This document shows positions 16,851-61,799 of a stretch of 64,000 bases of DNA, one piece after another. Every line of letters starts with the position of its first letter. Position 1 is the stretch's first letter. Under the pieces are notes generated by a model. The model was given only the letters and a program-made list of their open reading frames with translations, was not told where the DNA came from and did no database searches. Origin of the DNA: Acidimicrobiia bacterium (GTDB lineage Bacteria > Actinomycetota > Acidimicrobiia > Spongiisociales > Spongiisociaceae); the NCBI GenBank assembly GCA_965200835.1, contig OZ241390.1:2448416-2512415 (forward strand), given 5' to 3'. Both the position numbers and the translations under genes were made by a program.

Positions 16851-18187
16851 ATGCTCGAACGCGTCTACATCGAGAACTACAAGTGCCTGGCCGACTTCGA
16901 GCTGACGTTCGAAGACAGCGCAACGCTACTCCTAGGTCCGGACGGGGCTGGCAAGACGGCAGTGCTCGATGCGGTCTATGGGCTTTGCAAGTTGCTCGCC
17001 GCAGAAGTCAAGATCAGCGACCCGATAGCATTTCCGGCGTCAACTCTCACTCGTTGGCAAACCTGCCGCCATCAGGAGTTCGGGCTTCAGGTACGGGTGG
17101 GTGTCGACAGGTTCGTCTATGTGCTCCGGATCGAGCACGATGCTGGTACCGCGACTTCCTACGTCGCACGGGAGGAGCTGGTCGGTGGGGACACGGTGTT
17201 GTTCCGGTGCGCGAAGGGACAGGTGCAGCTCTTCGGTGATGACGGCTCGGAGGGACCAACCTATAGGACAGACGGGAGCGACTCTGCTCTGGCAAGGGTC
17301 GTGCCACACCCGTCCAACACGCGGATTACGTCCTTCCTCGATGTAGTTCGTAACACGGTGGTCTGTACCATCAATCCGTACGGTCTCCGCTCCGAGTCGA
17401 GTCGGGAGGACCGGCTTCTGGACCGCTACGCTTCGAACTTCGTCGATTGGTATCGCAATGCTGTCCAGGAGACCCCGGCACTGGCCCGCGATCATCTAGA
17501 AGCTTTGCGGTCGGCGATCGAGGGTTTCGACGACCTCCACCTCATGCAGTCCGGCCTTGTCACCCGGACGATGGTGCTCAGATTCACCGGCGGGCAGGAC
17601 GTCGAGTCATACAGACTCAGCTTCGGTGAGCTCTCTGAAGGGCAGCGGACACTGATTGTGCTCTACGGGTTGTTGCAGCTCGGTATCGCGCGAGGGATGT
17701 CTGTTTGATGTTGGACGAGCCGGACAACTATGTGCCGCTTCGCGAGATACAGCCGTGGTTGATGACCTTGGTAGACGTATGCGAGGAGACATCCTCCAAA
17801 GCCATCATCTGCTCGCATCACCCGGAGGTGATCGACTACCTAGGACCGACGCAGGGGAGGATCCTCCAACGCAACGCAGCTGGCGCAATGACCGCTCTAA
17901 AGGTCAACCTCCCTTCGGTGGGCCCGGCGCTCAAACTATCCGAACTCCTGGCCCGCGGATGGGTTGTTGAAGTAGGGTGTCCCCGGTTGTCCTGCTTCGT
18001 GAGCACAAGATTGTCAGGTGTGCGTCTACGGCCATTTCCCGCCCGGCTTCAGCATCGGGACGGCTGCGTCAAATGTCACCGATGCGACTTCTCAGGCCAG
18101 CTTCCCATCGTTTTCAAGCCCATCTGTCCGGAAGGTACGTGTGAGGTGCTGGCTACTAGGTACGCCGGAGGGCTCGGCGCCACCTGA
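16851..18187 (+). pseudogene. AAA_15/AAA_21-type ABC-like ATPase, disrupted by a -1 frameshift near 17700
   Basis: ORF 16851..17708 carries Walker A (LLGPDGAGKTAVL) and an ABC-signature-like LSEGQRTL. ORF 17705..18187 continues in the -1 frame with Walker B/D-loop (LMLDEPDNY) and H-loop (ICSHHPE). Confidence 0.6.
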
Positions 18188-18409
18188 GGAACTCCACCAG
18201 CTCGGTGGGGGAAAGTGGGTGGTCGGCCCGGCCGTAGGCGGTGATCAGGCGCCACTGCAGGTAGCTGGGTTCGGGTCGGGGGAGAAAGGGCATCCGGGTG
18301 GGCCATCCGGGCCCAGCGCTCGCGATGGCCATGAGCACTGCCTCGACCACCAGCCAGGGATGGCGAGCCAGCGCTCGTAGGAAGCCCAGCGTCAACCCGT
18401 CCATCGACC

Positions 18410-18982
18410 TCAGTCGGGTTGGTTACCTGGCTTCCACTTGATCGAGCATCCCATGGAGGGGTTTTGGGCAACAGTGACCGGCCGGTCGGCCAGCACCGCG
18501 TCCAGCGCGGCGCGCAGGTCCTTGCCCGTTACCGGCACTCCCGAGTTCGGCCGGGAACTGTCGAACCTTCCCCGATACACGAGCTCCCGCTCCGGCCCGA
18601 ACAGGAAGAAGTCCGGTGTGCAGGCTGCTGTGTAAGCCTGGGCGACCTCCTGGGTCTCGTCGAAGAGAACCGGGAAGTTGTAACCGCGCCGGCGGGCTAC
18701 TTCTCCCAGCCGCTCGGGTGCGTCATCAGGATAGGTGGTGGCGTCATTGGCGCTTATCCCGACAATGGCTACGTCCGCCCCCGCGTAGTCGGCGCTGAAC
18801 TCGGCCAGACCCTGCTGGATATGCACCACGTATGGGCAGTGGTTGCACAGGAAGATGACTACCAGGCCTTTGCGGTCGGACAGATCGGCCAAACTCACCC
18901 GACCGCCGCTAACGGTATCCATCAGGTCGAAATCAGGGGCTGGAGTCCCCAGCGACATCATTCTGGACTTTTCGAGGGCCAT
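18410..18982 (-). CDS. thioredoxin-fold / redoxin-family protein
   Basis: Redoxin-like domain with CNHCPY. An alternative start is MMSLGTPAPDF at 18961. Confidence 0.7.
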   Translation of the reverse strand: MALEKSRMMSLGTPAPDFDLMDTVSGGRVSLADLSDRKGLVVIFLCNHCPYVVHIQQGLAEFSADYAGADVAIVGISANDATTYPDDAPERLGEVARRRGYNFPVLFDETQEVAQAYTAACTPDFFLFGPERELVYRGRFDSSRPNSGVPVTGKDLRAALDAVLADRPVTVAQNPSMGCSIKWKPGNQPD

Positions 18983-19132
18983 TTCCTAGCTCCAGGTAGG
19001 GGACAGGTCAGAGAAACCAGGATAGCCCATGCGTCATCTAGGTATCCGCCAGCCGGATCGGATCGCAGCCAGACCTCCAGGCAGTCGACCGATCCAGGGT
19101 GATCCTCCGGTCGGACGTCACTCCCCGCTCGC

Positions 19133-19696
19133 TCAGCCGGGCTCGGCCTGTAGGTATGGCACCCAGCGCGGGTCGCGTCCTTTACCGAGGGCGGTATACA
19201 GCCAGCCCTGGTAAGTGGGGGTCACCGGCGGTCTGGCCAGCTTCAAGCCCACCTGGTGGGGTAGCAGGCTGCCCTTGCGCACGTTGCATCGCCGGCAGCA
19301 GGCCACCACGTTCTCCCAGGTGTTGGTGCCGCCGCGGGCCTTGGGTACCACGTGGTCGAGGCTGTCCGCCGGTGCGCGGCAGTACTGGCATCGGTGACTG
19401 TCGCGGGCGAACACCGCGGTACGAGTGAGGGGAACCCGCCGGTGGTAGGGGACCTTGACGTAGTTGCGCAGGCGAACGACCGAGGGGATCTCGAAGGTGT
19501 GCTCCGCGCTACGCCAGACCTGGTCGGCGACTGCCAGGGTGTCCGCCTTGGCTCGAAGTACCAGTACCACCGCTCGGCGCGCGCTCACGATCGACAGAGG
19601 CTCGTACGTAGCGTTGAGCACCAGAGTTCGATTGGCCACGTTGCTCCGTTCCCGACGCTGTGGCAACGATACCAAGCCGTGGGGGTTCATCCCCAT
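19133..19696 (-). CDS. HNH endonuclease
   Basis: HRCQYCRAPADSLDHVVPKARGGTNTWENVVACCRRCNVRKG HNH motif. Confidence 0.8.
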   Translation of the reverse strand: MGMNPHGLVSLPQRRERSNVANRTLVLNATYEPLSIVSARRAVVLVLRAKADTLAVADQVWRSAEHTFEIPSVVRLRNYVKVPYHRRVPLTRTAVFARDSHRCQYCRAPADSLDHVVPKARGGTNTWENVVACCRRCNVRKGSLLPHQVGLKLARPPVTPTYQGWLYTALGKGRDPRWVPYLQAEPG

Positions 19697-19821: not shown

Positions 19822-19877
19822 GTGGGGGCCAGTGGAGGAAAAAGGTAGACAGTGGGAAATAAGACCAGTAAAGTGGG
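19822..19877 (+). promoter_or_regulatory. putative MraZ operator / dcw promoter region
   Basis: Four direct GTGG(G/A) repeats at 19822, 19832, 19852 and 19873, spaced 10/20/21 bp (helical phasing), 45-100 bp upstream of the mraZ start. MraZ is known to bind phased GTGGG repeats in its own promoter. Confidence 0.4.
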
Positions 19878-20336: not shown

Positions 20337-20342
20337 ACATTT

Positions 20343-21928: not shown

Positions 21929-23728
21929 ATGGCGGATAGGAAAGGGACGCGGCTATCCGATGACCGTCACACCGGTATCCGGCTGCTGACGATCGCTCTG
22001 CTGATCGTGGGAGCCTGGTTCACGATCGGGTACCAGCTGTACAGGATCCAGGTGGTTCGTGCGGACGAGTTGAAGGAGCAGGCCGAGCGGCAACGATTCC
22101 GGTATCAGGAGACGGCCGCTTCCAGGGGCACGATGTACGACCGTCAGGGCCGAACCCTGGCGGTCAGTGTTGAGTCCCGAACCATCTACGCCAACCCGCG
22201 TCAGATCGAGGATCCCACCGCCACCGCCCTGATGCTGAGTGACGTTCTCAGGATGGACTTCGATCGGTTGCTTGAAAAGCTGTCGGACACCGATACCAGT
22301 TTCGTGTTTGTGGCCCGGCAGGTCGACAACAACAAGGCGGAGGAAGTAGCGAAGGAAGTGAGGGCACGGGAATTGTCCGGCATCCACTTCCTAACCGAAC
22401 CGAAGCGGATCTACCCATCCGGGTCGTGGGCAGCCCACACCGTCGGGTTCGTCGACATCGATTCGATCGGTATCGAAGGTCTCGAAGCGGAGTACGACGA
22501 GATACTGACCGGCACCCCCGGCTCCGTCCGATCCGAGCGCGCCGCGGGAGGCCAGGTCATCCCGCACAGTGATCCTGAAGTGGAGCCGGCCATTCCGGGT
22601 GCCGACCTCACGATCTCGATCGATCGGGAGATCCAGTATCTGGCGTATCAGGAGTGCCTCAACACCCTGCAGCTCGCCCAGGCAGACCGATGCACGCTGG
22701 TAGCCCTGGATCCCGACACTTTCGAGATCCAGGCGATGGTGGTGGTGCCATCGTTCGATCCCGCCGAGCGTTCCGAGCAGGATGTGGCCAGCGGGGCTCT
22801 GGTCAACACTGCCGTGCGATCCTTGTACGAGCCTGGCTCCACCCAGAAGGCCGTGACGGTGGCTATCGCGCTGGAGGAGGGGGTGGTCGACTGGGACACC
22901 GAGTACCTGGTGTATGACCAGTTCGAGCTGGTGGAGGGTGCCTGCGAGGACAATCCGACCGTGAAGGCCGAGGATGGTACCGAGGTGACCGTTTTCGGCT
23001 GCTACACCGATTTCACTCCGCACCCGCCCCAGCTCATGAACGTGTTGGGATGCATACGTGACTCGTCCAACGTCTGCATGGTCATGATCAGCCAGGATCT
23101 GGGTCGTGACCCGCTGCACAGATACCTGCATGCCTTCGGTTATGCGAAGCAGACCGGGATCGACTTCCCCGGCGAGGTCAAGAGCACCGTCAACCTCCCG
23201 CGCTCGTGTTCGTCCTGTCCGGCGTCGGCTGCCATCGGCTATTCCCTGTCCGTCTCTCCCCTCCAGATGGCCTCCGTCTACGGGATCATCGCCAACGGCG
23301 GCGTGAGGATGGAGCCCCGGTTGGTGAGCAGCATCATCGACGAGAGTGGGGTGATCAGCTCGACAGCAGGGGAGCAGAAGCGGGTGATCTCGGAGGAGAC
23401 AGCCCGGCTGGTGCGGCTGATGCTCAAATCGGTGGTCGACTCCGGTACCGGGACTGCGGCTGCGGTGGCCGGCTACACGGTCGGCGGCAAGACCGGTACC
23501 ACCCGCAAGTTCGATGCCGTCCAGGGTGTCTACACCGATGACTACACCGCCAGCTTCGTGGGGATGGCTCCGATAGACAACCCCGAGCTGGTCATCGCGG
23601 TGGTGGTGGACAGTCCCAAGACCGGCGGTACCGTATCGGCGCGTACCGGTGGAGCGGTGGCGGCTCCGCTGTTCGCCAAGGTCATGAAAGGATCGCTCCA
23701 TCAGATGGGGGTCAGGCCGGATGCCTAG
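21929..23728 (+). CDS. ftsI: penicillin-binding protein / peptidoglycan D,D-transpeptidase FtsI
   Basis: 599 aa. Transpeptidase STQK, SxN (SSN) and KTG(T) motifs. Confidence 0.9.
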   Translation: MADRKGTRLSDDRHTGIRLLTIALLIVGAWFTIGYQLYRIQVVRADELKEQAERQRFRYQETAASRGTMYDRQGRTLAVSVESRTIYANPRQIEDPTATALMLSDVLRMDFDRLLEKLSDTDTSFVFVARQVDNNKAEEVAKEVRARELSGIHFLTEPKRIYPSGSWAAHTVGFVDIDSIGIEGLEAEYDEILTGTPGSVRSERAAGGQVIPHSDPEVEPAIPGADLTISIDREIQYLAYQECLNTLQLAQADRCTLVALDPDTFEIQAMVVVPSFDPAERSEQDVASGALVNTAVRSLYEPGSTQKAVTVAIALEEGVVDWDTEYLVYDQFELVEGACEDNPTVKAEDGTEVTVFGCYTDFTPHPPQLMNVLGCIRDSSNVCMVMISQDLGRDPLHRYLHAFGYAKQTGIDFPGEVKSTVNLPRSCSSCPASAAIGYSLSVSPLQMASVYGIIANGGVRMEPRLVSSIIDESGVISSTAGEQKRVISEETARLVRLMLKSVVDSGTGTAAAVAGYTVGGKTGTTRKFDAVQGVYTDDYTASFVGMAPIDNPELVIAVVVDSPKTGGTVSARTGGAVAAPLFAKVMKGSLHQMGVRPDA

Positions 23729-25226
23729 GATGCCGGTCGACCTGGCGGCAGTCACCCACCGGGTAGGCGGAACCCTCCTGGGCAACCCTTCCACCGCGGT
23801 CACCGATGTCGTCCATGACAGCCGTCGAGCTGGTCCGGGTGCGCTGTTCGCGGCGCTCCGAGGGAGCCAGGCGGATGGGCACCGGTTTGTTGAGGCAGCG
23901 GCCCGTCGAGGCGCCGCGGCCTCCCTGGTCGAGGAGTTCGTTCCGTCGTCGCTGCCCCAGGTGAGGGTGGCTGATACCCGCCGGGCGGTGGGCCCGACTG
24001 CATCGCTGGTTCATGGTGATCCCACCAGGGGGATGGAGGTGGTGGGGGTCACCGGTACCAATGGCAAGACCACCGTGACCATGATGATCGAGTCGATCGC
24101 GGCTGCGGAGGGCAGGCCCTTCGGCCGCGTTGGCACACTAGGTGCGCGATTCCTGGGTAGCCACGAGCCGCTGCCTCTGACCACTCCGGAGGCTTCCGAT
24201 CTGCAGCGTCTCATGAGAGGGATGGCAGGCCGGGGCGTATCGATGGTGGCCATGGAAGTGTCCTCCCACGCCCTGGCCCTCGACCGGATCGGGGGTGTCA
24301 CCTTCGCAGTGGTGGCCTTCACCAACCTGTCCCAGGATCACCTCGACTTTCATGGTGATATGGACGCCTATTTCAGGGCCAAGCGGAAACTCTTCGACGG
24401 CCGGGCGCTCGTCCATGTCATCGATGTGACCACAGACGCCGGGAGACGGCTGGCCAGGACCGCTCCGGGCCGGGTGGTCACCGTCGGATCGGGCGACGAG
24501 CACGATGTAGCAGTCTCTGCAACCGAGATCGCCATGTTCCGATCGCGGTTCACCTGCCGCCTCGGGGGCGAGGAGGTGAGCCTGACGGTGAGACCGGGCG
24601 GGCTGTACAACATCCGCAATGCCGCGTTAGCGGCGGCCTGTGCCCGGGAAATGGGCATCGGAGTGGAGCACATCGCCCAGGGCTTGGCTGCCCTGCGCCG
24701 GGTTCCGGGCCGTATGGACCGGGTCGACGCGGGCCAGCCCTTCGAGGTGGTGGTCGACTACGCCCACACACCGGAGGCGGTCGAGTCGGTCGTGAACACT
24801 TCGCTCGACCTCTCCCGCGGATCGACCATCGCGGTGGTAGGCGCGGCCGGTGGGAGGGACCGTACCAAGCGACCACTTCTCGGAGCAGCAGTCGCCCGGG
24901 CGCACCTGGCGGTCATTACCTCGGACAATCCCCGTTGCGAGGACCCTGATGAGCTGGTCGACGCGGTAGTGGCAGGAACCTCCCGAGGCAGGGCAGAAGT
25001 GGTGGCCGAGGTCGACCGGCGCAAAGCGATCGGTCTGGCGCTGGAGCGCGCCCGTCCGGGGGACACGGTGCTGATCCTTGGCAAGGGCCATGAGAGGACC
25101 ATGGACCTGGGCAACCGGATCGTTCCCTTCGATGACCGGGCGGTAGCCGAGTCCTACCTGCATGGGCGATGGAGAGGTAACCGCAGCCCGGCAGCGCCAG
25201 CCCTGAATGGGGGTCGGTCCTCGTGA
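23721..25226 (+). CDS. murE: UDP-MurNAc-L-Ala-D-Glu:meso-DAP ligase
   Basis: GVTGTNGKTT P-loop. MurE-specific DHLDFHG and DNPR motifs. Confidence 0.9.
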   Translation: MPRMPVDLAAVTHRVGGTLLGNPSTAVTDVVHDSRRAGPGALFAALRGSQADGHRFVEAAARRGAAASLVEEFVPSSLPQVRVADTRRAVGPTASLVHGDPTRGMEVVGVTGTNGKTTVTMMIESIAAAEGRPFGRVGTLGARFLGSHEPLPLTTPEASDLQRLMRGMAGRGVSMVAMEVSSHALALDRIGGVTFAVVAFTNLSQDHLDFHGDMDAYFRAKRKLFDGRALVHVIDVTTDAGRRLARTAPGRVVTVGSGDEHDVAVSATEIAMFRSRFTCRLGGEEVSLTVRPGGLYNIRNAALAAACAREMGIGVEHIAQGLAALRRVPGRMDRVDAGQPFEVVVDYAHTPEAVESVVNTSLDLSRGSTIAVVGAAGGRDRTKRPLLGAAVARAHLAVITSDNPRCEDPDELVDAVVAGTSRGRAEVVAEVDRRKAIGLALERARPGDTVLILGKGHERTMDLGNRIVPFDDRAVAESYLHGRWRGNRSPAAPALNGGRSS

Positions 25227-41075: not shown

Positions 41076-41480
41076 GTGGTGCTGGTGGCCGACCAGGTCA
41101 CCAAAGCCTGGGCGCGGGCAGCGCTGGCGGACGGCGATGTGGTGCTGGTGTCCGGTTTTCTCGGGTTCCACCTGGCCGAGAACCCCGGGTCCGCCTTCTC
41201 GCTGTTCCAGAACCTGGGTTCATGGCTGGGACTGGCGGCCATCGCCGCCTCCGTTTTCATACTGGTACTGGTGGAGCGGAGCGGCACGCGAGGTGAGCTG
41301 GCCGGCTTCTCCCTGATCCTCGGTGGGGCGCTGGGAAACCTGGCCGATCGAATCACCAAGGGGCGGTGGATGTCCGGCTCGGTAACCGACTTCATCGACT
41401 TCAGCTTCTGGCCAAACTTCAACGTTGCCGATTCATGTATAACGATCGGGGCAGTGCTTCTCCTATGGTCAGCGAGATGA
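41076..41480 (+). CDS. lspA: lipoprotein signal peptidase II
   Basis: NPGSAFS and FNVADS motifs. The true start is probably upstream at a non-ATG codon, because the in-frame upstream sequence LTSKRLRAALIAAVVL looks like the first TM helix. Confidence 0.8.
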   Translation: MVLVADQVTKAWARAALADGDVVLVSGFLGFHLAENPGSAFSLFQNLGSWLGLAAIAASVFILVLVERSGTRGELAGFSLILGGALGNLADRITKGRWMSGSVTDFIDFSFWPNFNVADSCITIGAVLLLWSAR

Positions 41481-47433: not shown

Positions 47434-49235
47434 GTGTTCGCCTACGGGCGCCCCTACCGGTGGCTCCTGGTGGGGGTGCTGATCACCATCCTGATCATCT
47501 CGGTCCTGTCGGTGATCCCGCCCATCCTGATCAGGGACCTGGTGGATCGGGCCATGCCGGACGCCGACCTGGGCCGCCTGACCCTGCTCGGGGTCGGGAT
47601 GGTGGCGGTGCCGCTGGTGAACGTCTGTGTGGGCGCCCTACAACGCTGGATGTCTGCCAAGGCGGGCGAGGGCATCATCTACGACCTCCGCCGCAGTCTC
47701 TACATCCATCTCCAAGCCATGTCGCTGCGGTTCTTCACCGCCACCAAGACCGGCGAGCTGGTGTCACGCCTCGACAATGACGTGGTGGGCGCTCAGACGG
47801 CCATCACCGGCACCTTCGTGACCATCCTGTCCAATCTGGTCTCGATAGTGGCCATCCTGTTCGTGATGCTCCAGGCCGAGTGGCGGCTGACGCTGCTGGC
47901 GGTGGCCGCCTTCCCGCTGTTCGTTTACCCGGCTCGACGGGTGGCCCAGATCCTGCGCCGGATCACCCGCCGCCAGATGCAGCACAACGCCGCCATGGCC
48001 GCCATCCTCAACGAGACTTTCAACGTCAGCGGAGCCCTGCTGGTCAAGCTGTTCGGCCGCCGGCGCCAGGAGACGGAGCGGTTCTCCGAGGAGGCCCGGG
48101 CGGTGCGGGATCTGGGGGTTCGCCAAGCGGTCATCGGGCGGTGGTTCTTTGCCGCGCTCGGGGCGGTCAGCGCCATCGGGACCGCCACGGTGTTCTGGGT
48201 GGGTGGCTATCTGGTGATCCAGGGTTCCCTGAGCCTGGGCACGGTGGTCATGTTCTCCTCCCTGCTGTTCCAGCTGTATGGGCCCCTGGCCGCCATGTCG
48301 AACGCCCGGGTGGAGTTCGCTACTTCCCTGGTCTCCTTCGAGCGGGTGTTCGAGGTACTGGACCTACCCCACGACATCACGGAGGAGCCCGATCCGCTCG
48401 ACCTGCGGCCGGTCCGGGGCCGGGTCCACTTCGATAGGGTCTCCTTCCGCTACCAGGGGGATGAGCTGTCGGGCCTGGCCCCGCCCAGCGTTCCTGGGGG
48501 ATCGAGGACAGTGATGCTCCGGCGATGCAAGCCACCCGCACCTGGGCGATCGACGACCTGTCCTTCCGGATCGAACCGGGAGAGCTGGTAGCGCTGGTCG
48601 GACCATCGGGGGCCGGAAAGACCACCGTCTCCTACCTGGTTCCCCGGCTGTACGACACCGAACGGGGGCGGGTGATGATTGACGGCACCGATGTACGGCG
48701 GGCGACCCTCGCCTCGCTGGAGGAGGTGGTGGGGGTGGTGACCCAGGAGACCTTCCTGTTCCACGACACCATTGCGGCCAACCTCCGGTATGCCAAGCCC
48801 GATGCCTCCCAGGAAGAGCTCGAGGAGGCGGCTCGAGCAGCCAACATTCACGACTTCATAATGACCCTGGCCACCGGTTATGACACGGTGGTGGGGGAGC
48901 GGGGCTACCGGCTGTCGGGGGGCGAGAAGCAGCGCATCGCCCTGGCCAGGGTGATCCTCAAGGATCCGCAGATCCTGATCCTCGATGAGGCCACCGCCCA
49001 TCTCGACTCCGAGTCGGAGGCGCTCATCCACGAAGCGCTGCAGCGGGTGATGGCAGGTAGAACCTCGCTGGTGATCGCCCACCGCCTGTCCACCATCGAG
49101 TCCGCCGACCGGATCCTGGTGCTGGACGAGGGCCGGCTGGTGGAGGAGGGAACCCACACCGAGCTGCTCGAGGCCGATGGTCTATATGCCCGGTTGCGCC
49201 GGATCCGGCTCAGGCGGCGGAAAGTTCCCGCCTGA
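47434..49235 (+). pseudogene. MsbA-like ABC exporter (fused TMD-NBD) disrupted by a frameshift near 48470-48540
   Basis: ORF 47434..48591 holds a 6-TM domain up to VSFRYQGDE and then runs out of frame. ORF 48525..49235 holds the NBD ([34 protein letters not shown]). In the NBD frame the upstream sequence already reads ...[14 protein letters not shown]. Confidence 0.7.
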
Positions 49236-49768: not shown

Positions 49769-52700
49769 TTGACCGAAAACACGCTTCCCACACGAGCGCC
49801 CTCGGTGGGCGAGCTGGTAAAGGTCAGGTCACGCCAGTGGCTCGTGGAGGAAGTGGGCCAGTCCGACAACCCTGATCACTCTCCCCGCGTGCCGCTCGCC
49901 TGCGTCGACGATGACAATCAGGGCCAGCGCCTCTCTGTGTTCTGGAAATACGAACCGGATCGGCTGATCCTCGAGGACGCCGGTTGGAACCACCTGGCGA
50001 CCAAGGGCTTCGACCCACCCCGGCGCTTCGCGGCCTTCCTCAACACCCTGCGGTGGAACTGCACCACGGCCACCGACCCCACCCTGCTCCAGGCGCCCTT
50101 CCGAGCGGGCATCACCATCGATGCCTACCAGATGGAACCCCTCCGCAAGGCCTTGCGCCTCCCGCGGGTGAACCTGCTGATCGCTGACGACACCGGCCTG
50201 GGCAAGACCATCGAGGCGGGCTTGATCACCCACGAGCTGCTCCTCCGCCGCAAGGTCAAGGTCATCGTGGTGGCCGCGCCCCCGTCGATGCTGGAGCAGT
50301 GGAAGGGAGAGATGGAGGATCGCTTCGGGCTGGTGTTCGAGGTGCTCGACCGGAGCTACGTCTCGAGGATGCGGCGTGAGCGAGGTTTCGGGGTCAACCC
50401 GTGGCGGACCCACAGCCGGTTCCTGGTGTCGCACCGCCTGCTGATCGACCCCTCCTACACCGACCCGATGCGGGAGTGGTTGGGTGACCTCCGCACCGGC
50501 AGCCTGCTGATCCTCGACGAGGCGCACCATGCCGCCCCCACTTCGGGCGGGCGCTACGGCATCGAGACCAAGTTCACCCGGGCAGTTCGCGATCTCGCCC
50601 ACCGCTTCGAGCATCGCCTGTTCCTGTCGGCCACGCCCCACAACGGGCACTCCAACAGCTTCTCCACCCTGCTGGAGATCCTCGACCCGTACCGGTTCAC
50701 CAGGGGAGTCAAGGTGACCGCACCCAAACAGGACCTCGCTCCGGTGATGGTGCGCCGGCTGAAGGAGGACATCCGGGCGCTGCAAGGTGGGTTCCCCAAG
50801 CGCAACGTCCAGCGGATCGAGATCGACGGCTTGCCCCACGACGCTCCGGAGTTGGCCCTGTCCCGGTTGCTGGATGAGTACGGCCGGGTACGCGATGAGC
50901 GCTACTCGCTGGAGTCGAAACGAGTCCGTTATGCGGCGAGGCTGATGGTGGTCGGCCTGCAGCAGCGCCTGCTGTCATCGATAGAGGCCTTCCATCGCAG
51001 CCTCCTGGTCCATCGCCGGACCGTGTTACGCCACTGGACCAAGGCCCACGAAGAGGTGTCTGAAGACACTCCACAAGGGCGCGGGATCACGACGAGTGAG
51101 CGCCATGACTTCGTGGCAGCTGCCGATGCGGACGATGACCGAGCCGAGTTGACTCCGGAGGAGGCGGGAGCGGACGAGCAGGCCCAGATCGAGGAGATCA
51201 ACGCGGCCTCCCTTCCCTCGCGGGACCCGGCGAGGGCAGCTTGGGAACGGGAACAGCGCCTCCTCGACCGGATGCAAGCGATAGCGAAGAAGGCCAGGCA
51301 TCATCCCGATGCCAAGACCCGCTGGCTGATCGACTGGATCCGCCGCCACCAGTGCCCGGATCTGCCCGAGCTCGGCCGACCCATCATCGGCCCTCCGCCG
51401 ACCTGGACCGACCGCCGGGTGCTGATATTCACCGAGAACCGGGAAGGCACGAAGAAGTACCTGAAGTCGATCCTCGAGCAGGCCATCTTCGGTTCCGACC
51501 GGGCGGACGACCGGATAGCGATCATCGACGGGCTGACCAGCCCGGCCCGCCGCCGGGATGTCCGGCGCCGCTTCAACGCCGATCCCGCCCGCGAGCCCCT
51601 GCGGATCCTGATCGCCACCGACGCCGCCCGGGAAGGCCTCAACCTGCAAGCCCAATGCTCGGACATGTTCCACTTCGACCTGCCCTGGAACCCCGGCCGC
51701 ATCGAGTAACGCAACGGTCGGATCGACCGAAAGCTCCAACCCGCCGATCAGGTGAACTGCCACTATTTCGTGCTGCCCCAGCGGGTTGAGGACCGGGTGC
51801 TCGATGTCCTGGTCCGCAAGACTGAAACCATCAAGCAGGAGCTTGGTAGTTTGCCGAAGGCCATCGAGGACACAGTGGAGCAGCGCCTCACGCGGTACGG
51901 GATCCGTCACCACGATGCGGAGAACCTGCGGCGCAAGGTAGAGGCCGAGTCGGTGGACCAAGCTCACGCAAGCGTGTCCGACGAGGAACTCGAAGCCGCC
52001 CGGGACCGCCGCCATGACCTCCAGGATCAGATAGAACGCTGCCGCCGGCTCCTCCAGAAGTCCCGGAGCTGGGTGAGATTTTCCCCCGAGCCCTTCCACC
52101 AGGCCATCGACTGCTCCCTGGAGCTGCTGGGTGCCCCACCCCTGGTGGAGAGCACCCAGGTCCAGGGGGGGGGGGCGTCGTCGAGTTTGGAAGTTCCCTG
52201 AGCTAGATCAGAGGGCAACCACCGATCCGAGCTGGGTTTCCACGCTCGACTCCCTGCGGGTTCCCCGCAAGATCGACCAGAAGATACCCGACTGGCGGCG
52301 CGACGCGCCCATCCGACCCCTGGTGTTCGAGGACACCGGACTGCTCGATGACCAGACCGTCCACTTCCACCTAGAGCAGCGAGTCGCTCAGAGGCTGCTG
52401 GCCCGCTTCCGATCCCAGGGCTTCATCCATCATGACCTTTCGAGGGCCTGCCTCCTGCAGTCGCGGGACGCAATATGCAGGGTGGTGCTCCTGGGACGGC
52501 TGTCGCTATACGGCCGGGGTGCTGAGCGCGTCCACGAGGAGCTCGTTCCGGTAACCGCCCGCTGGACCGATCCCGACCGGCGCTCTGGCCCCTTACGTGC
52601 CTACGCGACGGACACTGAGCGGTTCACTATGCGGCTGCTCGACGAGTCGTTGAGCTCCCAGGCTCGCTCGCCCAATCCGCAGGTCAAGCGGCGGCTGCTG

Positions 52701-53081
52701 GGCAGTGTCGCCCAGGACATCGAGGAACTACGTCCACATCTAGAGCCCCGCGCCGCCACGTTTGAGGAGCGCGCCAGAGAGCAACTGGCAGAACGCGGTA
52801 AGCGAGAGGAGCGGATGCTGCATGACACGCTCGAGCGGCACCGCACCCAGGTGGTTGCCCAACTCTCCCGTTATAAGCGCGACCTCAAGCAGCTGTCCCT
52901 GGGGTTCAACGTTGCGGAGAGGGGGCAGCTCAAAGCCGACATCCGCCACTGGGGCCGGCGCCTGGAGAAGTTCGATCAGGACTTGATGGACGAGCCCGCC
53001 CGGGTTCGCGAGCTCTACCGAGTGCGGGTCACCCGGGTGGAGCCGGTGGGCCTCGTCTACCTATGGCCGGAGGGAAACTGA
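49769..53081 (+). pseudogene. SNF2-family helicase (DISARM DrmD-like) with an in-frame TAA at 51707 and a G11-tract frameshift at 52165
   Basis: Walker A LIADDTGLGKT, DEAHH box, LSATPHNG and motif VI DLPWNPGRIE-*-RNGRIDR, with the stop in place of the conserved Gln. ORF 51752..52201 continues in the same frame. After the G11 run, the frame of ORF 52131..53081 continues for a further 300 aa. Confidence 0.7.
52165..52175 (+). repeat. G11 homopolymer tract inside the SNF2 helicase gene
   Basis: Eleven consecutive G residues read directly. Reading frames switch across it. Confidence 0.9.
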
Positions 53082-56000
53082 TGCCCAAGCCCAACCGCTA
53101 CATCACCGACCATCTCGAATGGATCGGCTTCGTTCGGCCCACCGGTCTGGTGGTGTCAGCTCCCGCCTTGGTAAAGGCGGGCGTCATCCTCAACCGTCGG
53201 GATCGGGCCGGCCAGCAACTACTCAAGGAGTGCCTACCGAACGGCTCGGGTACGACGGGATCACAACCCGACCCGGCCCCCGTACTTCCGGACTTCCCGG
53301 CCTTCGCCCGTACGGTGCTCGGCTGGAGTTTCTCTCCCAAGGGCTATGCCGGTACGGAGGAATCACCGATTCCCTCCGAGCTCGAGCTCTCCCTACCCGA
53401 TTCCGGAGGCGGGTTCCGGCCTGACTTCGCAGTTCTAGCCGACCCTGCCCGGTCCCGGCCGCCCGCCACCAACGGAAACAAGCGTGAAGGGACCGACCGG
53501 GCATCGCCCTGGCAGCTGCTGGTCAGCACCTACGAGCCCTGCGAAGACTTCGACAAGACAGCCTCGAACGGCTCGGGAGTGGAGATGTCGCCCCACAGCC
53601 GGATGGAGCGCCTGCTACGTGACACCCGGGTGCCCGCCGGGCTCCTTTTCGACGGAACGACCATTCGCCTGGTGTCCGCTCCCAAGGGCGAGAGCTCGGG
53701 ATGGATGGACTTCCAGGTGGGCGACATGATCCAGACCGCTGGGCGCCCGATCTGCACTGCGATGCGCGAGCTGCTCAGCCAGACCCGGCTCCTAGTCGTA
53801 GGGCGCGACCAGCGCCTGGCCGCGCTGCTGGAGGACAGCCGGAAGTTCCAGAACGAGGTGAGCGAGCGCCTGGCCGAGCAGGTACTGCACGCTCTGTACG
53901 AGCTACTGCGAGGTTTCCAAGCCGCCGATGACACCGCAAAAGGCCAGCTACTTGGACGCTGGCTGGCTGACCAACCCGATGAGATCTACAGGGGGTTGCT
54001 CACCGTGGTGCTGCGCCTGGTCTATCTGCTGTACGCCGAGGAACGCGACCTGCTGCCCCAGGACGAGACCTTCCTAGGGCCTACTCGGTGTCAGGCCTAT
54101 ATGAGCGTCTGCGGGCTGACGCCTCCCTCCATCCCGACACTATGGACCAGCGCTACGGAGCCTATGCCCAGCTCCTAGCCCTATGGCGCATGGTTCATGA
54201 CGGGGCCAAAGCGACCGACATGGTGATGTCGCCCAAGTATGGCGACCTCTTTTGCCCGACCGCTACCCCTTCCTCGAAGGCAGTCTGGGGGCCAGGCAGA
54301 CGACTGACCGCATCGAGGCACCGCTGGTACCCGACGGCACTATCCATCGGGTGCTGGAGAAGCTGATCGTGCTGGACTCCGAGCGCATCTCCTACCGAGC
54401 TCTCGATGTGGAGCATATCGGTTCGGTGTACGAGACCATGATGGGTTTCCGCCTCGAGAGGGCCACCGGTCGCAGCATCGCCATCAAGGCTGCCAAGAAA
54501 CACGGCGCTCCGGCCACCATCAACCTCGATGAACTGCTCTGTCAGGCTTCCAGTAGCCGGACCAAGTGGGTCAAGGATCGGACCGATCGACAACTAAGCG
54601 CAAAGGTGGGCCGGGCGGTCCGGGAAGCCACCACGCTGGAGGAGCTCCATGCCGCCCTCGATCGGGTGATCGACCGCCAGGCCACACCTGATCTCGTCCC
54701 GCCCGGCGCCATGGTGCTGCAACCCAGCCAGGAGCGCCGCCGCTCGGGTTCCCACTACACGCCCCGCAGCCTGACGGAGCCGATCGTCCGCAAGGCGCTG
54801 GACCCAATCCTGGACCGCCTCGCTGAAGAACAAGAGGGCCCACTTCGACCGGAACAAATCCTCGACCTGAAGGTGTGCGACCCGGCCATGGGCTCGGCGG
54901 CGTTCCTGGTAGAAGCGTGCCGCCAGCTGGCCGACGCCCTGATCGAAGCTTGGCGGGCCCACGAAGAAGCACCCGACCTCCCCCCGGGCGAGGACCAGCA
55001 GATCTTCGCTCGCCGACTGGTGGCTCAACGCTGCCTCTACGGAGTCGACCGCAACCCCAAGGCAGTGGACCTAGCCAAGCTGTCGTTGTGGCTCATCACC
55101 CTGTCCAAGGACCATCCGCTCACTTTCCTCGACCACGCCCTCCGCCATGGCGACTCGCTAGTGGGTCTGTCGATCCCTCAGATAAGGGCTTTCCATTGGA
55201 AAGGCAACGCTCCCGCCTTTCAGGAGGGTTTTGAGGCCCTCCGAGGACAGCAGCTACTCGCCGATGCAGCCGAGCTACGCAGGTGGATTCGCGAGGAAGG
55301 CGACACCATATCCGAGCGGGAGATGCGCGAAGCGTGGATGGAGTCGCGTGAAGTGACCGACGACCTCCGCTTGTTGGGGGACCTGGTGCTGGCGGCGTTC
55401 TTCGATGAGTCCACGCCAACGGCGCGGGAGGCACGTCGTAAAAGGTTCGCGAATGGCGTTCAGAACGGTATCGAGGGACAGTATCGCGCCTGGATGGAGG
55501 AACTTCGCAACCAGGACCGACCCCTCGCGCCACTCCACTGGCAGATCGAGTTTCCCGAGGTCTTCGACCGTCCCAATCCCGGCTTCGATGTCATAGTCGG
55601 TAATCCACCATTCGCTGGTAACAACACTATTACCGCTTCGAACATCAACCGCTATTCCCACTGGCTCAAGGAGATGCATGTTGAGAGCCACGGCAATTCG
55701 GACTTGGTAGCTCACTTCTTTCGGCGAGCCTTCAATCTGGTCCGTATGGGTGGAACCTTTGGTCTTATCGCTACCAATAGCATCTCCCAAGGTGACACAC
55801 GCTCGACGGGACTACGATGGATATGCAAGAACGGCGGAGAAATATTTTGTGTTCGCAAGCGTGTGAAGTGGCCTGGACAAGCTGCGGTAGTAGTGAGTGT
55901 ACTCCACATCAGCAGAGGTGGATTTCACGGCTACAGGCTCCTTGACGGTCACTCCGTATCAAAGATCACAGCCTTCTTATACTATCGAGGCAAGAACGAT

Positions 56001-57107
56001 GATCCGAGGTCGTTGAAAGCTAACATAGCCAAGAGTTTCTTGGGTAGTATAATACTGGGGATGGGGTTTACTTTTAACGATAACGATAAGGAGCGTGTGG
56101 CTACACCAATTAGAGAGATGGAAAGACTCCTAAGGTCTAATCCTTCGAATCAAGTGGTTATTTGTCCATATATAGGAGGGAGGGAGCTAAATAACAACCC
56201 GACCCAAAAAAACCATCGTTCCGTAATTGACTTCGGGGAGAGAAGTTTGTCAAAGTGCAGATTCCATTGGCCCGACTTACTAGAGATAGTAACCAATAAG
56301 GTTAGACCAATACGAATCAAGAAGCGTTATCCTCGTATGGCGAATGAGTGGCGGAAACATTATGCACCCCAATTAAAACTATACGATTCTATTAGGGGTT
56401 TAAAACGGGTTATGGCAACTTGTAGGGTTAGCCAACACATGTCTTTTGCCTTTCTGTCTAACGGAATGGTCTATGCAGACTCATTAGTTATATTCTCCTA
56501 TGAGAGATTCGCCGCATTCTGCGCGCTCCAAGCAAGACCTCACGAGATCTGGTCTCGATTCTTCGGATCCTCGATGAAGGACGACTTACGCTATACAGTC
56601 ACAGACTGTTTCGAGACATTTCCACTTCCGAATAGCTGGGAGAGCCGCTCCGACTTCGAATCAGCAGGTGAGGAATACTACGAGTTCCGGGCAGACCTGA
56701 TGAAATTCAACGATGAAGGCTTGACCAAGACATACAACCGATTCCATGATCCCAGCGAGAACGATGCCCGGATTATCGAACTCCGTAGACTGCATGCCGC
56801 CATGGATCGGGTTGTACTGGACGCATACGGGTGGAGTGACATCCCGACGGACTGTGAGTTCCTGCTCGACTACCCGATCGATGAGGACAACTGGGGCAGG
56901 AAGAAGAAGCCTTACCGCTACCGCTGGCCTGACGAGGTTCGTGATGAGGTGCTGGCTCGGTTGCTGGAGCTCAATGCCGAGCGGGCTGCTGAAGAAGCAC
57001 GGTCCGGTCAAGCCAACCCACCGCGTGGCCGGGGACGGCTCCAAAAGTCGCCACCCACGACTTCTCCATCCAACCAACTCACCTTGAGCCCTTCCAATGG
57101 CACCTGA
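53081..57107 (+). pseudogene. Eco57I/type IIG-like N6-adenine DNA methyltransferase (DISARM DrmMI-like / PglX-like), two frameshifts
   Basis: ORF 53063..54178 in frame A, ORF 54088..54366 in frame B (SGLYERLRADASLHPD...) and ORF 54252..57107 in frame C. Frame C carries motif I (DPAMGSAAFLVEA) and motif IV (VIVGNPPF). An ATG at 53081 overlaps the upstream TGA (TGATG). Confidence 0.75.
55740..56800 (+). other. low-GC (about 45-50%) segment inside the methyltransferase ORF
   Basis: Base composition falls sharply against about 68% flanks while the reading frame stays open (ICKNGGEIFCVRKRVKW ... NRFHDPSEND). It lies downstream of the NPPF catalytic motif, where target-recognition domains sit. Confidence 0.7.
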
Positions 57108-57120
57108 ATGGAGGTGACCC

Positions 57121-60100
57121 ATGCCTGAGCCGGACCCATCTCCCGGATGGAACGAGGCCCCCTCACCGGAGGTGCGCGACTACCTGGTCGAAGCGTTGCG
57201 GCTCGATCTGGTCGGTCCGGGGGCTGGCCATCACCTGGCCGATGAGCAGCTGCCGGGATGGGTTAGACCGTCCAGCTGGTACCTCACCGGGTTTCTGATC
57301 CCCTCGGGCACGCCACTCGAGTTGCGCTCCGACAACGACGAGGACGACCCGCTGGACGAGACTCCGGCCACCGCCGGTCTGGCTGAGGAGTCGTCGGAGG
57401 AGCGGAGGGCAGCCCGCAAGAGCTTCTTCCCGTCGTCGATCGGGCTGAGCTTCCTCGTCCCACACAAGACGGAGGTGCTGGACATAACCGTTCGCTGGGG
57501 CGACTACCAGCGGTCGACCACCGAGGGCACCGACGGCAAGCCGCTGAAGGTGTGGCAGAGGCACCCGCAGGAGCACACCGTGGCGGTCACTCTCCCGGAC
57601 CGATCCTCCGATCATGAGGTTCCGGAGTCCGGTGGGCTGGGGCTGCACATGGTCACGAGGCCAGTGGAGGTCGAGGGTCCCGACGGCCTCACCCAGCAGG
57701 TCAATTCGGTGTCGATATTCCTGGTCAACCATCGGCCCTCGCTCGGGGGCCAGCCCGGCGACGTTACGAGCCTCGGCGACGCCGATCTCGGCTACGCCTT
57801 CCAGGCCGAGCTCGAGATCACCAGTGAGGTGCCATTCGTGCCCCGTCCTGACCCCCGTGGGGCGCATGGTCGGGAGTGGGACGACCAGGTAGCCGACCTC
57901 CACTATGCGGACACACCTGAGTACGCGGTCGGCCACGGGGTATCAGCCGAGTGGGAGGTGGTGGGCGGCAAGTGCCATGTCCTGCGCACTACCTGGATCC
58001 CGGACGCCGCAGTGGCGAAGACCGAGGCCACCTCGAAGCCGGAGGCGGAGCTGTCGATGGAGGTGCTCGGAAGTCTTCCGGATGGCGACGCGGTATCGGC
58101 GGCCTTGCGGCCGCTGGTAGAGCACTACCGAGCCTGGATCGACAGCCAGTACCGGACTCTCACCGCACACACGGGTGACCGCCGGAAGACCGCGGGGGAG
58201 CTATTGAGTCACGCCCGCGGGGCCGCCGACCGTATCGAGCGGGGGATCGACCTGCTGGTTACCGACCCGGACGCCCTCGACGCCTTTCGGGTGGCCAACC
58301 GGGCCGTGGCCACTGCCTTGCAGAGGAGGATCGGCTCCCCACCTGAGGAGTCGGGATGGCGCTGGTATCCATTCCAGCTGGCGTTCATCCTGCTCAACCT
58401 CCCCGGTCTGGGCGATCCGCAACATCCCGAGCGCCCAGTGGTCGACCTCCTCTTTTTCCCGACCGGCGGCGGCAAGACCGAGGCCTATCTGGGTCTGGCG
58501 GCCTTCACCATGGTGCTGAGACGCTTGCGGGAACCCGGCCATGAGGGCCGGCAAGGGGCAGGCGTCACCGTGATCATGCGTTACACGCTCTGGCTCTTGA
58601 CCCTGGATCAGCTGGCCCGGGCCTCCGGCCTGGTGTGCGCGCTGGAACTGGAGCGCCAGCTCGATCCCGACCGCTATGGAACCTGGCCGTTCGAGATCGG
58701 CCTGTGGGTGGGCAAGGCGGCCACCCCCAACGCGATGGGTCGGGTGCGTGACGGACGGCAGGACACGGCCCGGGCCAAGACCCGCCGATACAAGGCCAAT
58801 CCGGGATACCACCCCCTGCCCATTCCCCTCGAGACCTGCCCGTGGTGCGGTCAGCAGTTCGAGCCGGCGAGCTTCACGCTGCTGCCCGACGACGAGCTGC
58901 GCATCGTGTGCCTCAACTTCGAGTGTGACTTCCAAGGGGACAACCCGCTGCCGATCGTGGCGGTGGACGATCCCATCTACCGGCGTCTGCCTGCCTTCCT
59001 GATCGCCACGGTCGACAAGTTCGCCTCCCTGCCCTGGACGGCCCGCACCGGCCTGTTGCTCGGCGGCGCCGACCGCATCGACGCCAAGGGCTACTACGGA
59101 GCGGCCGATCCCGGAATCGGTCGCCCGCTCGACCACCCGCTACTGGCCCCTGACCTGATCATCCAGGACGAGCTGCACCTGATATCAGGGCCCTTGGGCA
59201 CCATGGCCGGCCTGTACGAGACGATCATCGAAGCCTTATCTGTCCAGGCCAGCGAGCGGGCCGGTCATCGTCCAGAGGGCCGCCGGTCGCCGCAGGTACG
59301 GCCCAAGATCGTGGCCTCCACTGCAACAGTCCGCCAGGCGCAGAGTCAGGTCCAGGCCCTGTTCGCCCGGTCGGCCACCCGGGTGTTCCCACCCCCAGGG
59401 CCGGACCGGAAGGATTCGTTCTTCGCCGAGACTGTCCCCACCACCCAGGTACCCGGCCGCTTGTATCTCGGTATCGCGGCGCCGGGACGGAGTCCCAAAG
59501 TCCTGATGCGCCGGGTCTGGCTGGCCCTGATGGGATCCGCCGAGCGGGCCTACCGAGACGCCGGCGGGCGCAAGAACCGGGACAACCCGGCCGATCCCTA
59601 CATGACCGTGCTGGGTTACTTCAACAGCCTGCGGGAGCTGGGTGGGGCGCGCCGCATCCTCGAGGAGGAGGTCCGCAACACCGTCAAGACCTACGGGCGT
59701 CGCCGCCGGATCGGCCAGTCCTTCCAGGAAGCACCGTTCCGGGATCGGACCAGCTTCGCGGAGGTGGTGGAGCTCACCTCCCGGGTTCCGACCGGCAAGG
59801 TGGCCGAGGCGAGACGGCGGCTGGGATGCGCCAAGCACGAGCAGGACAGCGTGGACAGCGCTATCGCCACCAACATGATCTCGGTGGGTCTCGACATCCC
59901 CCGGCTCGGGCTGATGGTGGTAGTCGGCCAGCCCAAGACCCACTCCGAATACATCCAGGCCACCAGCCGGGTGGGGCGGGACGATCAGCGGCCGGGACTG
60001 GTGGTGACCTTGCTCAACATGCACAAACCCCGCGACCGATCCCACTACGAGCGCTTCCGTCACTACCACGAGACCTTCTACCGCTCCGTGGAGGTGTCCA

Positions 60101-61799
60101 GCGTCACGCCCTTCTCGGCCAGGGCCCTCGACCGCGGGCTGGCCGGCGCACTGGTGGGCTACGCCCGCCATGCGGAAGGAGTGCTCACGCCGGCCGAGGG
60201 AGTCGAGGAACTCGAAGCGGTCAGGGTTACGGTCGAACGACAACTCCGGCAGGTACTGCTGCAGCGAGTGGACCGCCAGCCCTTCCAATACGAGACCGAG
60301 CACACCGAAAGGCGCCGGAGCGTGACCGCCCGGGTGGTGGAACTACTCGACTCGTGGTTGAAAGTGGTGGAGGGCTACCACCAGGTAAACAGCCCGGTGA
60401 GGTATCAGAAGTACGAGGGGAAAGCGGCCGCCAAACCACTGTTGCGGGAGATGCTCGACCAGGACTTCGAGACCGCCCACCATCGCAAGTTCCGAGCCAA
60501 CCGCTCCCTACGTGATGTCGAGCCGGAGGTGAACCTGTATATCAGGCCGCTCACCGCCTCTCTCGGCGACTCTACGAGGCCACCGAGCTCAGCGACTGGC
60601 CGCTCGGTCTGTGCCTGGGCAGGCGGCCGTGGCTGGGTCGCGGCACCGACGAGGATTGCACGCTACCGAGCCGGTTGCTCATCCGCACCGCCTCCAACGC
60701 CTACTTTCCCCAGGTGGTCAGCGTCCTGTCGCTGCCTGATCGGGGCACCGATCTGGACCGGGTGGTGGGGGAGCTCTGGGAGGACCTTCAGCTGGTGGAC
60801 CGCTTGAGCCATCTCCGCTTCCTCAAGAAGAAGGCGAAGGTAAGCGGGGGACTGGCTGGCTTTGCCGACGCTGAGGTGCTGAAGGCGATCCAACGCCGCA
60901 AGGGCGGGTCCGCGGGCGACCGCTCCGTCAAGGAGGCCGAGCTCGAGGAACTGCTGGCCGCGCCGGAAGGATTCGGCGACCGGGGACAGGTCGATCCGAA
61001 CTTCCACGCCCGGCGCCTGCCACAGAGTGCCTGGAGATCCCCGCGGTCGAAGCTGAGCGGTGGAGTAGAGGGAGTGATCCACCTCCACCGGTTGCGCGAG
61101 GTGCTGGCCCTGATCGGATTCACCCGCTTCGAGGCCGTTATCCGTGACATCCACGGCGAGTACGACACCGATGTCGAGCGGGCCGGCATCGCCCTCGATC
61201 CCAGCTGGTTTCCGGCGATCGAGAACCGTGACGAAGGCCTGTTCGCCTACCTGAGACCGGAGGAGGTCGACAGGTGGTTACGGAGACGACCCGCGCAAAC
61301 CCGGATAGACGACCTTCGCAACCGGCACGAGACCGGCCAGCAAGGCCGTAAGCATCCCTGGCCCTTCCCCGGAGGCCCCTACATCCTGTTGCACACGCTC
61401 GCACACCTGCTCATCCAGTGGCTGGCCATGCGTTGCGGCTACCCGGCCAGCTCCATCCGCGAGCGGATCTATGTGGAAGGTCAGCGCTATGGCCTGCTCC
61501 TCTACACCGGATCTCCCGACGCCGAAGGGACCCTGGGCGGCCTCGTCCAGCAAGCCCGCCACTTCGAGGACCATCTGGCCTATGCGCTTCGGGTGGGCGA
61601 GCTTTGCTCCAACGACCCGATCTGTGCCCAGCACGGAGCTGGCACCGCCCTCGAGGAGGGTCACCTGCACGGTGCCGCCTGCCATGCTTGCACGCTGATA
61701 GCCGAGACCACCTGCGAGATGCGCAACGACTACCTCGACCGGGCGCTGGTAGTCCCGACCCTCGGCTCGGACGGTGCCGCCTTCTTTCCGTCCCCCTGA
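57121..61799 (+). pseudogene. large DEAH-box helicase with C-terminal DUF1998/MZB zinc-binding domain (DISARM DrmA+DrmB-like in one frame), one frameshift near 60540-60575
   Basis: ORF 57121..60807 has a 440-aa N-terminal domain, Walker A FFPTGGGKTEAYL, IIQDELHLISG, an inserted CPWCG...CLNFEC zinc ribbon and motif VI QATSRVGRD. ORF 60675..61799 has the DUF1998 Cys cluster CSNDPICAQH...GAACHACT. GC3 tracks frame 0 until about 60575 and frame +2 from about 60543. An SD GGAGGTGA lies 6 nt upstream. Confidence 0.7.

Follow-up and report, generated by a model that had tools for sequence, protein, structure and literature searches.

The DNA analysed here is a window of 64 kb (64,000 nt) from an Acidimicrobiia bacterium (assembly GCA_965200835.1, contig OZ241390.1, positions 2,448,416 to 2,512,415) with a G+C content of 65%. 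It carries on its forward strand a block of the genes drmD, drmMI, drmA and drmB, in the order of a class 1 DISARM defence system. Upstream of the block are an ABC exporter gene and a gene for an AAA_15/AAA_21-type ATPase (Table 1). It is very probable that the 12-kb block represents a dead and still decaying class 1 DISARM that has lost drmC, and that the ATPase gene is a second, independent pseudogene.

The PADLOC matches of DrmD, DrmMI, DrmA and DrmB have E-values from 1e-52 down to 1e-284, and Pfam matches in the block comprise SNF2-rel_dom, Eco57I, MmeI_Mtase, MmeI_TRD, N6_Mtase, Helicase_C and MZB/DUF1998. The SNF2-like drmD (PF00176) stands before the core genes, the N6-adenine methyltransferase gene drmMI lies between drmD and drmA, drmA encodes a helicase with Helicase_C (PF00271), and drmB with DUF1998/MZB (PF09369) follows just downstream. 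Missing is the PLD nuclease gene drmC downstream of drmB, and drmD, drmMI and drmB are broken rather than intact open reading frames (ORFs). A scan of species-representative genomes yielded 79 related loci with DrmMI proteins of 55-68% identity and the order drmD-drmMI-(variable gap)-drmA-drmB; many of them are sponge-associated metagenome-assembled genomes (MAGs). Judged by gene content and order, the region from 49.8 to 61.8 kb is a class 1 DISARM, and its defence label is well founded. A system in this state is presumably not functional.

The N-terminal part of DrmD (49769-51709) is 87% identical to its counterpart in a Ca. Spongiisociaceae contig (L003), while DnaE (P0286) of the same contig is only 68% identical to the DnaE of the window (42532-46041). 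This difference indicates that DISARM moved horizontally among these lineages.

Broken genes and their counterparts in other assemblies

Exact-sequence look-ups of window proteins led to conspecific Logan short-read contigs, which derive from at least 10 runs of the Sequence Read Archive. These contigs are 99.9-100% identical to the window, and scattered single-nucleotide polymorphisms separate them from it; hence, the assemblies are independent. Contigs L080 and L081 (SRR33960554, SRR33960552) align to 9920-30336 without gaps and with 7-8 substitutions, and L098 and L099 (SRR33960553, SRR33960552) span 51677-58718. The drmA/drmB deletion junction is crossed colinearly by L100, L101 and L102 (SRR33960552, SRR33960553, SRR33960550). 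The ABC exporter is covered by L090, L092 and L093 (SRR33991083, SRR33960552, SRR33960551), the last of these contigs being seen in 5 samples. In the neighbouring essential genes the strains differ by substitutions only. For the lesions in DISARM genes, intact homologues from the related loci L003, L004, L005 and L008 served as tblastn probes.

Three ORF pieces of drmD cover the PADLOC profile at 9-614, 631-757 and 760-1036 (DrmD, E=1.6e-217). When reconstructed, the protein aligns over 100% of its length, with 78% identity, to intact homologues of ~1100 aa that bear the name DrmD. Full-length homologues number in the thousands, and both DrmD and DrmMI are encoded by single ORFs in L005 and L008. 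An in-frame TAA interrupts helicase motif VI and is also found in L098 and L099. One frame extends from 49781 to 52168 and changes inside a tract of eleven G (G11). The tract has ten G in L098, where it is in frame and gives a 442-aa ORF, and nine in L099 (three assemblies at contig level); no other assembly compared showed the G11 allele. Homologues possess a variable G/D/N-rich loop at this position, neither poly-Gly nor poly-G.

Two related long-read MAGs have drmD ORFs that are broken exactly at poly-C tracts, namely Ca. Spongiisociaceae OZ243930.1 (C11, L003:6816-6826) and Acidimicrobiia OZ246890.1 (C10, L004:7890-7899). These breaks are either homopolymer errors or further slippage-prone sites in DISARM genes. 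The tract in L004 is not at the codon of the poly-G in the window and arises from a conserved APPL motif.

For drmMI, the PADLOC profile is covered at 7-303 and 369-1328 (DrmMI, E=1.9e-284). Both frameshifts are shared by L098 and L099, which encode an identical truncated product of 371 aa. The two contigs additionally lack the T at 54328, a third drmMI frameshift, whereas the window keeps the frame of the homologues there (PLVPDGT vs PLVSDGT). Within drmMI, the G+C content falls to 0.42-0.51 at 55600-56800, compared with 0.66 around it. This stretch corresponds exactly to the MmeI_TRD (target-recognition) part, which is the segment least similar to homologues (median identity 47-55%). It looks like a specificity-domain swap from a donor of lower G+C.

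DrmA matches its PADLOC profile (PDLC02575, E=1.3e-270) over positions 7-829 of 837, with a single tblastn frame from 57142 to 60573 and the native C-terminus (...PLTASLGDS) at ~60573. In homologues, the start codon of drmB and the stop codon of drmA overlap in an ATGA, and drmB continues with ~195 codons (MSPKAHGQIRQSQVITTYGPG...CECRKSR), whereas the window resumes at ...LYEATE. A deletion of ~0.59 kb has thus taken the stop codon of drmA together with the start codon and ~195 codons of drmB, about one third of that gene. Due to the loss of its stop codon, drmA reads 78 codons into out-of-frame drmB. All relatives checked have 530-590 nt between the drmA end and the part of drmB that the window retains. 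The junction resembles both flanks, which suggests a microhomology-mediated event. A lesion reported earlier in the helicase-DUF1998 gene is therefore present, but it is not a simple frameshift in one gene, since the deletion affects both drmA and drmB. The drmB remnant corresponds to positions 322-602 of 606 in the PADLOC profile and to residues 211-629 of the L004 DrmB (tblastn). In L100, the A at 59855 is missing and drmA is frameshifted; the window is ancestral at this site. A DrmC of 261 aa (PLD nuclease; PADLOC E=1e-74 to 1e-82) is encoded directly 3' of drmB in L003, L011, L017 and L018. With this 261-aa DrmC of relatives as query, no tblastn match was found anywhere in the window.

The frame of the ATPase gene changes (mod3=0 to mod3=2) between the LSEGQ and LMLDEPD motifs, and the best fit is the loss of 1 nt in the G run at 17694-17696. 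Restoring one G there yields ...LQLGIARGDVCLMLDEPDNY, with spacing and length that match the homologues. The intact homologue L114 (66% identical) gives a tblastn alignment in two parts, with residues 1-283 lying in one frame and residues 284-376 in another. Altogether 1361 homologues, of about 377 aa, run through the break without interruption; among the best 120 of the 1361, nearly all have ~365-415 aa, with 83% of the reconstructed query covered. The truncated 285-aa product is identical on 11 short-read contigs, where a 159-aa ORF follows (6 different runs shown), and the frameshift is common to L080 and L081 in a gapless alignment. Homology ends at ~17968 (...ARGW). The homologues stop 2 residues later, while the ORF of the window continues for 72 codons, an extension that may be due to a second lesion, the loss of the stop codon.

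A defence role of this ATPase is suggestive only. An HNH gene (19133-19696) on the reverse strand, opposite to the ATPase gene and separated from it by 1.2 kb with two intervening genes, matches PtuB and PDC-M01B weakly (E=2e-6 and 5e-10). The intact homologue L114 also stands alone, with no nuclease as a neighbour. In many SRR33991xxx runs, contigs break off at ~18960-19000 and resume at 19828-19835, on either side of the HNH gene. This gene may be repeated or variably present; alternatively, coverage is low there, and some contig ends carry Illumina adapter.

In the ABC exporter, the frame changes (mod3=1 to mod3=0) at a C4 run within the N-terminal strands of the nucleotide-binding domain. 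The intact exporter of 600 aa is encoded by L090 and L092, and the C4 allele was not found in other assemblies, a weak negative. The lesion at ~48500 thus exists in the sequence of the window, but other contigs are intact and do not bear out its reading as a real pseudogene. Either the sequenced strain acquired it very recently as a private mutation, or the assembly contains a homopolymer error. In both cases it does not belong to the evidence for long-term decay.

Table 1. Coordinates of the DISARM block, of the other genes discussed and of their lesions (positions in the 64-kb window).
Feature	Position	Strand	Remarks
AAA_15/AAA_21-type ATPase pseudogene, N-terminal fragment, 285 aa	16851..17708	+	Pfam AAA_15/AAA_23; ends at frameshift-created stop
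ATPase C-terminal fragment, other frame	17693..18187	+	L114 residues 284-376 match 17684-17962 (tblastn)
ATPase frameshift site	17694..17696	+	probably G4 to G3
rluD	41366-42424		identity corrected relative to the earlier note
ABC exporter, transmembrane and nucleotide-binding domains	47434..49235	+	two ORFs, split in the window only; Pfam ABC_membrane and ABC_tran on separate ORFs
C4 run, ABC exporter	48479..48482	+	1-nt deletion specific to the window
Class 1 DISARM block, drmD-drmMI-drmA-drmB	49769-61799	+	
drmD (SNF2-like helicase) pseudogene, three ORF pieces	49769..53081	+	PADLOC PDLC02621
In-frame TAA, drmD	51707..51709	+	replaces Gln of helicase motif VI QRxGRxxR (NPGRIE*RNGRIDR)
G11 homopolymer, drmD	52165..52175	+	only run of at least 8 bases in the window; out of frame
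drmMI (MmeI-like N6-adenine methyltransferase) pseudogene, three frames	53063..57107	+	PADLOC PDLC02643, tblastn
drmMI frameshift 1, one base lost	54077..54079	+	CTAGGG^CCTAC; homologues FLG-AYSVSG
drmMI frameshift 2, one base lost, C run	54255..54257	+	TTTTGCCC^GAC (TGCCC^GAC); homologues GDLFHPDRYPFLEG
drmA helicase ORF	57121..60807	+	intact to native C-terminus, then 78 out-of-frame drmB codons
drmB (DUF1998/MZB) remnant, no own start	60516..61799	+	C-terminal ~410 of ~605 codons; Pfam MZB
Junction of ~0.59-kb deletion	60558..60575		colinear in L100, L101, L102
Expected drmC position	61800..61849		50 nt between drmB and convergent transglutaminase gene

Origin of the lesions

The earlier note had listed seven lesions, one each in the ATPase gene, the ABC exporter and drmA/drmB and two each in drmD and drmMI, and had read them as genuine pseudogenisation under relaxed selection rather than noise. 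All seven are present in the sequence. The comparison with close relatives proposed there shows that contigs of the same species share the lesions, all but that of the ABC exporter being reported as replicated. With this exception the reading is supported. The ATPase frameshift, the TAA in drmD, both drmMI frameshifts and the drmB deletion occur in every assembly of the species that covers them. Six of the seven lesions are real, not noise.

The small lesions are all 1-nt deletions, most of them in G or C runs of 3-5 bases. All 4 sites at which the assemblies differ by an indel lie within 11.7 kb of covered sequence in the ABC/DISARM block, against none in ~30 kb elsewhere (P about 0.006). Under uniform placement, the probability that all seven lesions fall into the 15.0 kb of ATPase, ABC and DISARM coding sequence (CDS), and none into 39.3 kb of intact CDS, is 1.2e-4; it is 2.0e-4 for the six replicated ones. 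At the lesion rate of the accessory genes, 18 lesions would be expected in the intact CDS, and the probability of finding none is 1e-8. The gene classes for these statistics were set after seeing the data, but the values leave a wide margin, and the recurrence of lesions in other assemblies carries more weight than the statistics.

A mixture of old lesions common to all assemblies and young private ones is what marks ongoing neutral decay. At 54328 and 59855 the ancestral frame is found in the window and a new lesion in other assemblies, as predicted for continuing decay under relaxed selection. The first knockout would have removed the function of DISARM, and purifying selection on all of its genes would then have stopped. 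Replication slippage and deletion bias would subsequently have added hits, some of them becoming fixed by drift and others still segregating. By general restriction-modification logic, a live restriction module is expected to do harm once its methylase is gone. Therefore, drmB and drmC as the effector side, or drmD, probably failed before drmMI or together with it.

Several observations weigh against this reading or limit it. The analysis covers 64 kb of a 2.84-Mb genome. The evidence consists of assembled contigs rather than reads and hence contains no within-sample allele frequencies. In the ABC exporter, all three short-read contigs (L090, L092 and L093) have C5 at 48479-48482. It is somewhat surprising for an old pseudogene cluster that drmA is still an intact ORF of 3.4 kb in the window. 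The class 1 DISARM of Serratia sp. SCBI has been characterised; there, deletion of single modules led to partial loss of protection and drmC was dispensable (bioRxiv 10.1101/2021.12.28.474362). Since the loss of components is tolerated in Serratia, the absence of drmC alone proves nothing. Furthermore, the data do not separate relaxed selection from selection for loss.

Selected inactivation, in which the loss of DISARM was favoured owing to autoimmunity, cost or a need for foreign DNA and not merely tolerated, is possible but rather unlikely. It would fit several independent knockouts in three or four genes of one system. Moreover, loss of the methylase with an active effector is expected to be toxic, and Pgl shows toxin/antitoxin behaviour (PMC4365076). 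However, one knockout is enough if loss is selected, and neutral decay predicts the many further hits and the segregating lesions; independent lineages offer no evidence of parallel loss, and the substitutions are too few for a dN/dS test. Sequencing or assembly noise, that is, long-read homopolymer indels that happened to hit these genes, is highly improbable and, as a general explanation, is refuted by the replication in short-read contigs. Four of the five 1-nt lesions of the window do lie in short G or C runs, the ABC lesion (C4 vs C5) is absent from all three short-read contigs, G11 was not found in the other assemblies compared, and the drmD ORFs of the long-read MAGs L003 and L004 break at poly-C tracts. 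Nevertheless, six of the seven lesions recur in independent Illumina-derived contigs from several runs. Homopolymer error cannot yield a nonsense substitution or a 0.59-kb deletion, both of which are replicated. Outside the ABC/DISARM block, the window shows no indel relative to ~30 kb of short-read sequence, and at 54328 and 59855 it is the short-read contigs that carry the lesion. Programmed recoding, by which frameshifting or stop read-through would still give full-length proteins, can practically be dismissed. Beyond the location of frameshifts in short runs nothing speaks for it; five separate recoding events would be needed, no slippery heptamers are present, and neither the 195-codon deletion nor the missing drmC can be recoded.

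It is also very unlikely that the drmD lesions reflect reversible phase variation instead of decay, with the G tract as a contingency switch for DISARM. G11 is the sole homopolymer of at least 8 bases in the 64 kb and lies within the reading frame of drmD. The tract is 9, 10 or 11 bases long in three assemblies that are otherwise nearly identical; these lengths switch the frame, and G10 restores it. The pglX G tract of Streptomyces provides a precedent in a high-GC actinomycete. However, the TAA lies ~460 nt upstream in every assembly, so that no tract length is an ON state with a full-length DrmD as product, and drmMI and drmB are irreversibly broken. Homologues are without poly-G at this loop. 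Among the G/C homopolymers of at least 8 bases in the 79 related loci, 11 of 19 are in DISARM genes, which make up 49% of the sequence, and long tracts are thus not significantly enriched there (P=0.30). Differences in poly-G length can also be produced by sequencing or assembly. That the tract evolved as a real contingency switch while DISARM was alive, and was locked in the OFF state by later mutations, is improbable as well. If this were true, it would mean phase variation of DISARM mediated by simple sequence repeats in environmental high-GC Acidimicrobiia, a counterpart of the Streptomyces pglX tract, and the poly-C breaks in drmD of L003 and L004 would be live examples rather than sequencing errors. 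Neutral decay of the DISARM genes remains our preferred explanation.

Surroundings of the block

The window contains a dcw cluster of the actinobacterial type, mraZ-rsmH-ftsI-murE-mraY-murD-ftsW-murG-murC-murB-ftsQ-ftsZ-pgeF-yggS-divIVA, followed by ileS, a dksA-like gene, lspA, rluD and dnaE. Named relatives of DnaE with 62-70% identity are MAGs of Acidimicrobiia or Actinomycetota, in line with an uncultured Acidimicrobiia-like source. End-to-end NCBIfam/Pfam matches were obtained for dinB, for each of the 15 genes of the dcw cluster, and for ileS, rluD, dnaE and fabD/H/G/F, with profile coverages such as 4-859/861 for IleS, 3-1143/1146 for DnaE, 1-448/449 for MurC, 2-440/441 for MurD and 3-356/357 for FtsW. 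Genes for ROK, SulP, MFS, FabD, FabH, FabG, FabF and DinB proteins are also of full length and lie upstream of 16851.

The earlier note had described the housekeeping genes as free of lesions, and indeed every long housekeeping ORF tested fits its profile essentially from end to end. Its figures of about 40 kb and roughly 45 kb of housekeeping CDS between 16851 and 61799 are too high: lesion-free, profile-verified CDS amounts to 39.3 kb in the window and to 26.4 kb within this span, and dinB (14489-15730) and fabF (8390-9646), which had been counted in, are outside it. Not all accessory genes are broken, since toxin-antitoxin-like ORFs and the HNH gene are intact. An islet of lower G+C (0.58) at 9700-12300 contains small ORFs of toxin-antitoxin type (UPF0150/HicB-like, PIN_3), which are apparently intact. 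As to hallmarks of mobility, the window has no tRNA genes, and no meaningful direct or inverted repeats flank the island.

Two further features of the neighbourhood deserve mention. In the otherwise canonical dcw cluster, murE is directly followed by mraY with no murF between them (23721-26293), and the short-read contigs show the same arrangement. A 380-aa ORF on the reverse strand (46056-47198) fuses a type II 3-dehydroquinate dehydratase (aroQ, residues 1-140) to an alpha/beta-hydrolase (Abhydrolase_3/BD-FAE). Since 10 independent contigs contain the identical ORF, the fusion is real and not an error.

Several of the Logan contigs L103-L113 end in Illumina adapter (AGATCGGAAGAGC...), for example L104 at its 3' end, L089 at its 5' end, and L111 and L113 at their 5' ends, which calls for caution against reading contig ends from these runs as structural variation. 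Apparent extra differences in L113 (17760) and L104 (61689) are at adapter junctions and were discarded as artefacts. Contig breaks at ~47.23, 61.6-61.75, ~19.0 and ~19.83 kb in many runs had suggested a presence/absence polymorphism of the island. This idea was dropped as unproven, because several contig ends carry adapter and low coverage or library structure explains the breaks equally well. Exact-product look-ups, which are weak negatives, returned no record for the drmA read-through ORF, both ABC fragments, the G11-specific drmD fragment, the long-form transglutaminase ORF or the guessed drmB start. Scans of Joint Genome Institute (JGI) metagenomes for the poly-G locus (tract lengths of 6-16 bases allowed) and for the deletion junction gave no match; the species is apparently absent from the JGI collection scanned.

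Comparison with known systems

Ofir and colleagues are said to have defined class 1 DISARM in 2018, with the order drmD-drmMI-drmA-drmB-drmC. The block of the window has the same families in the same order (SNF2 helicase, MmeI-like adenine methylase, helicase and DUF1998/MZB protein). It differs in that drmD, drmMI and drmB are pseudogenes, drmC is absent, drmA has no stop codon of its own and no drmMII accompanies the genes. The combined-deletion state that abolished protection in the Serratia study (bioRxiv 10.1101/2021.12.28.474362) is matched by the broken drmD, drmMI and drmB.

The ATPase resembles the AAA_15/AAA_21 ATPases of Septu, Gabija, PARIS and HEC-01-type systems in its N-terminal ABC-type ATPase with Walker A, LSxGQ signature and DEP Walker B. 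The PADLOC matches to HEC-01A, PtuA, mad3 and AriA are weak and partial (E-values 1e-11 to 1e-16). In contrast to Septu-like systems, it has no operonic partner nuclease, and it is frameshifted.

For the Pgl system (BREX-related) of Streptomyces coelicolor, an 8-G tract in pglX is described as causing high-frequency switching between Pgl+ and Pgl- (Sumby & Smith 2003, as cited in PMC4365076). The drmD tract is likewise a frame-switching G homopolymer in a defence gene of a high-GC actinobacterium, with a length that varies between near-identical genomes. However, it is located in an SNF2 helicase and not in a methylase, and a fixed nonsense codon lies upstream, with which no tract length restores the protein.

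Fast turnover of defence systems is known, but for uncultured bacteria the steps between an intact and a lost system have seldom been recorded base by base. Here, the two layers, lesions fixed across samples and newer strain-specific ones, give a relative order of events. The locus is also a warning for automated defence catalogues, since PADLOC-type matches would call a DISARM despite at least three dead genes. Looking up truncated products in independent public assemblies offers a cheap, read-free test that distinguishes MAG pseudogenes from assembly errors.

Mira, Ochman and Moran reportedly put forward deletion-biased pseudogene decay in bacteria as a general model in 2001. The window agrees with it in that all indel lesions are deletions and that hits pile up in one functional unit after its inactivation. 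Nothing of substance is different; the DISARM block is a textbook-like instance with strain-level polymorphism and thus a new example of a well-known process, unusually cleanly documented and otherwise ordinary.

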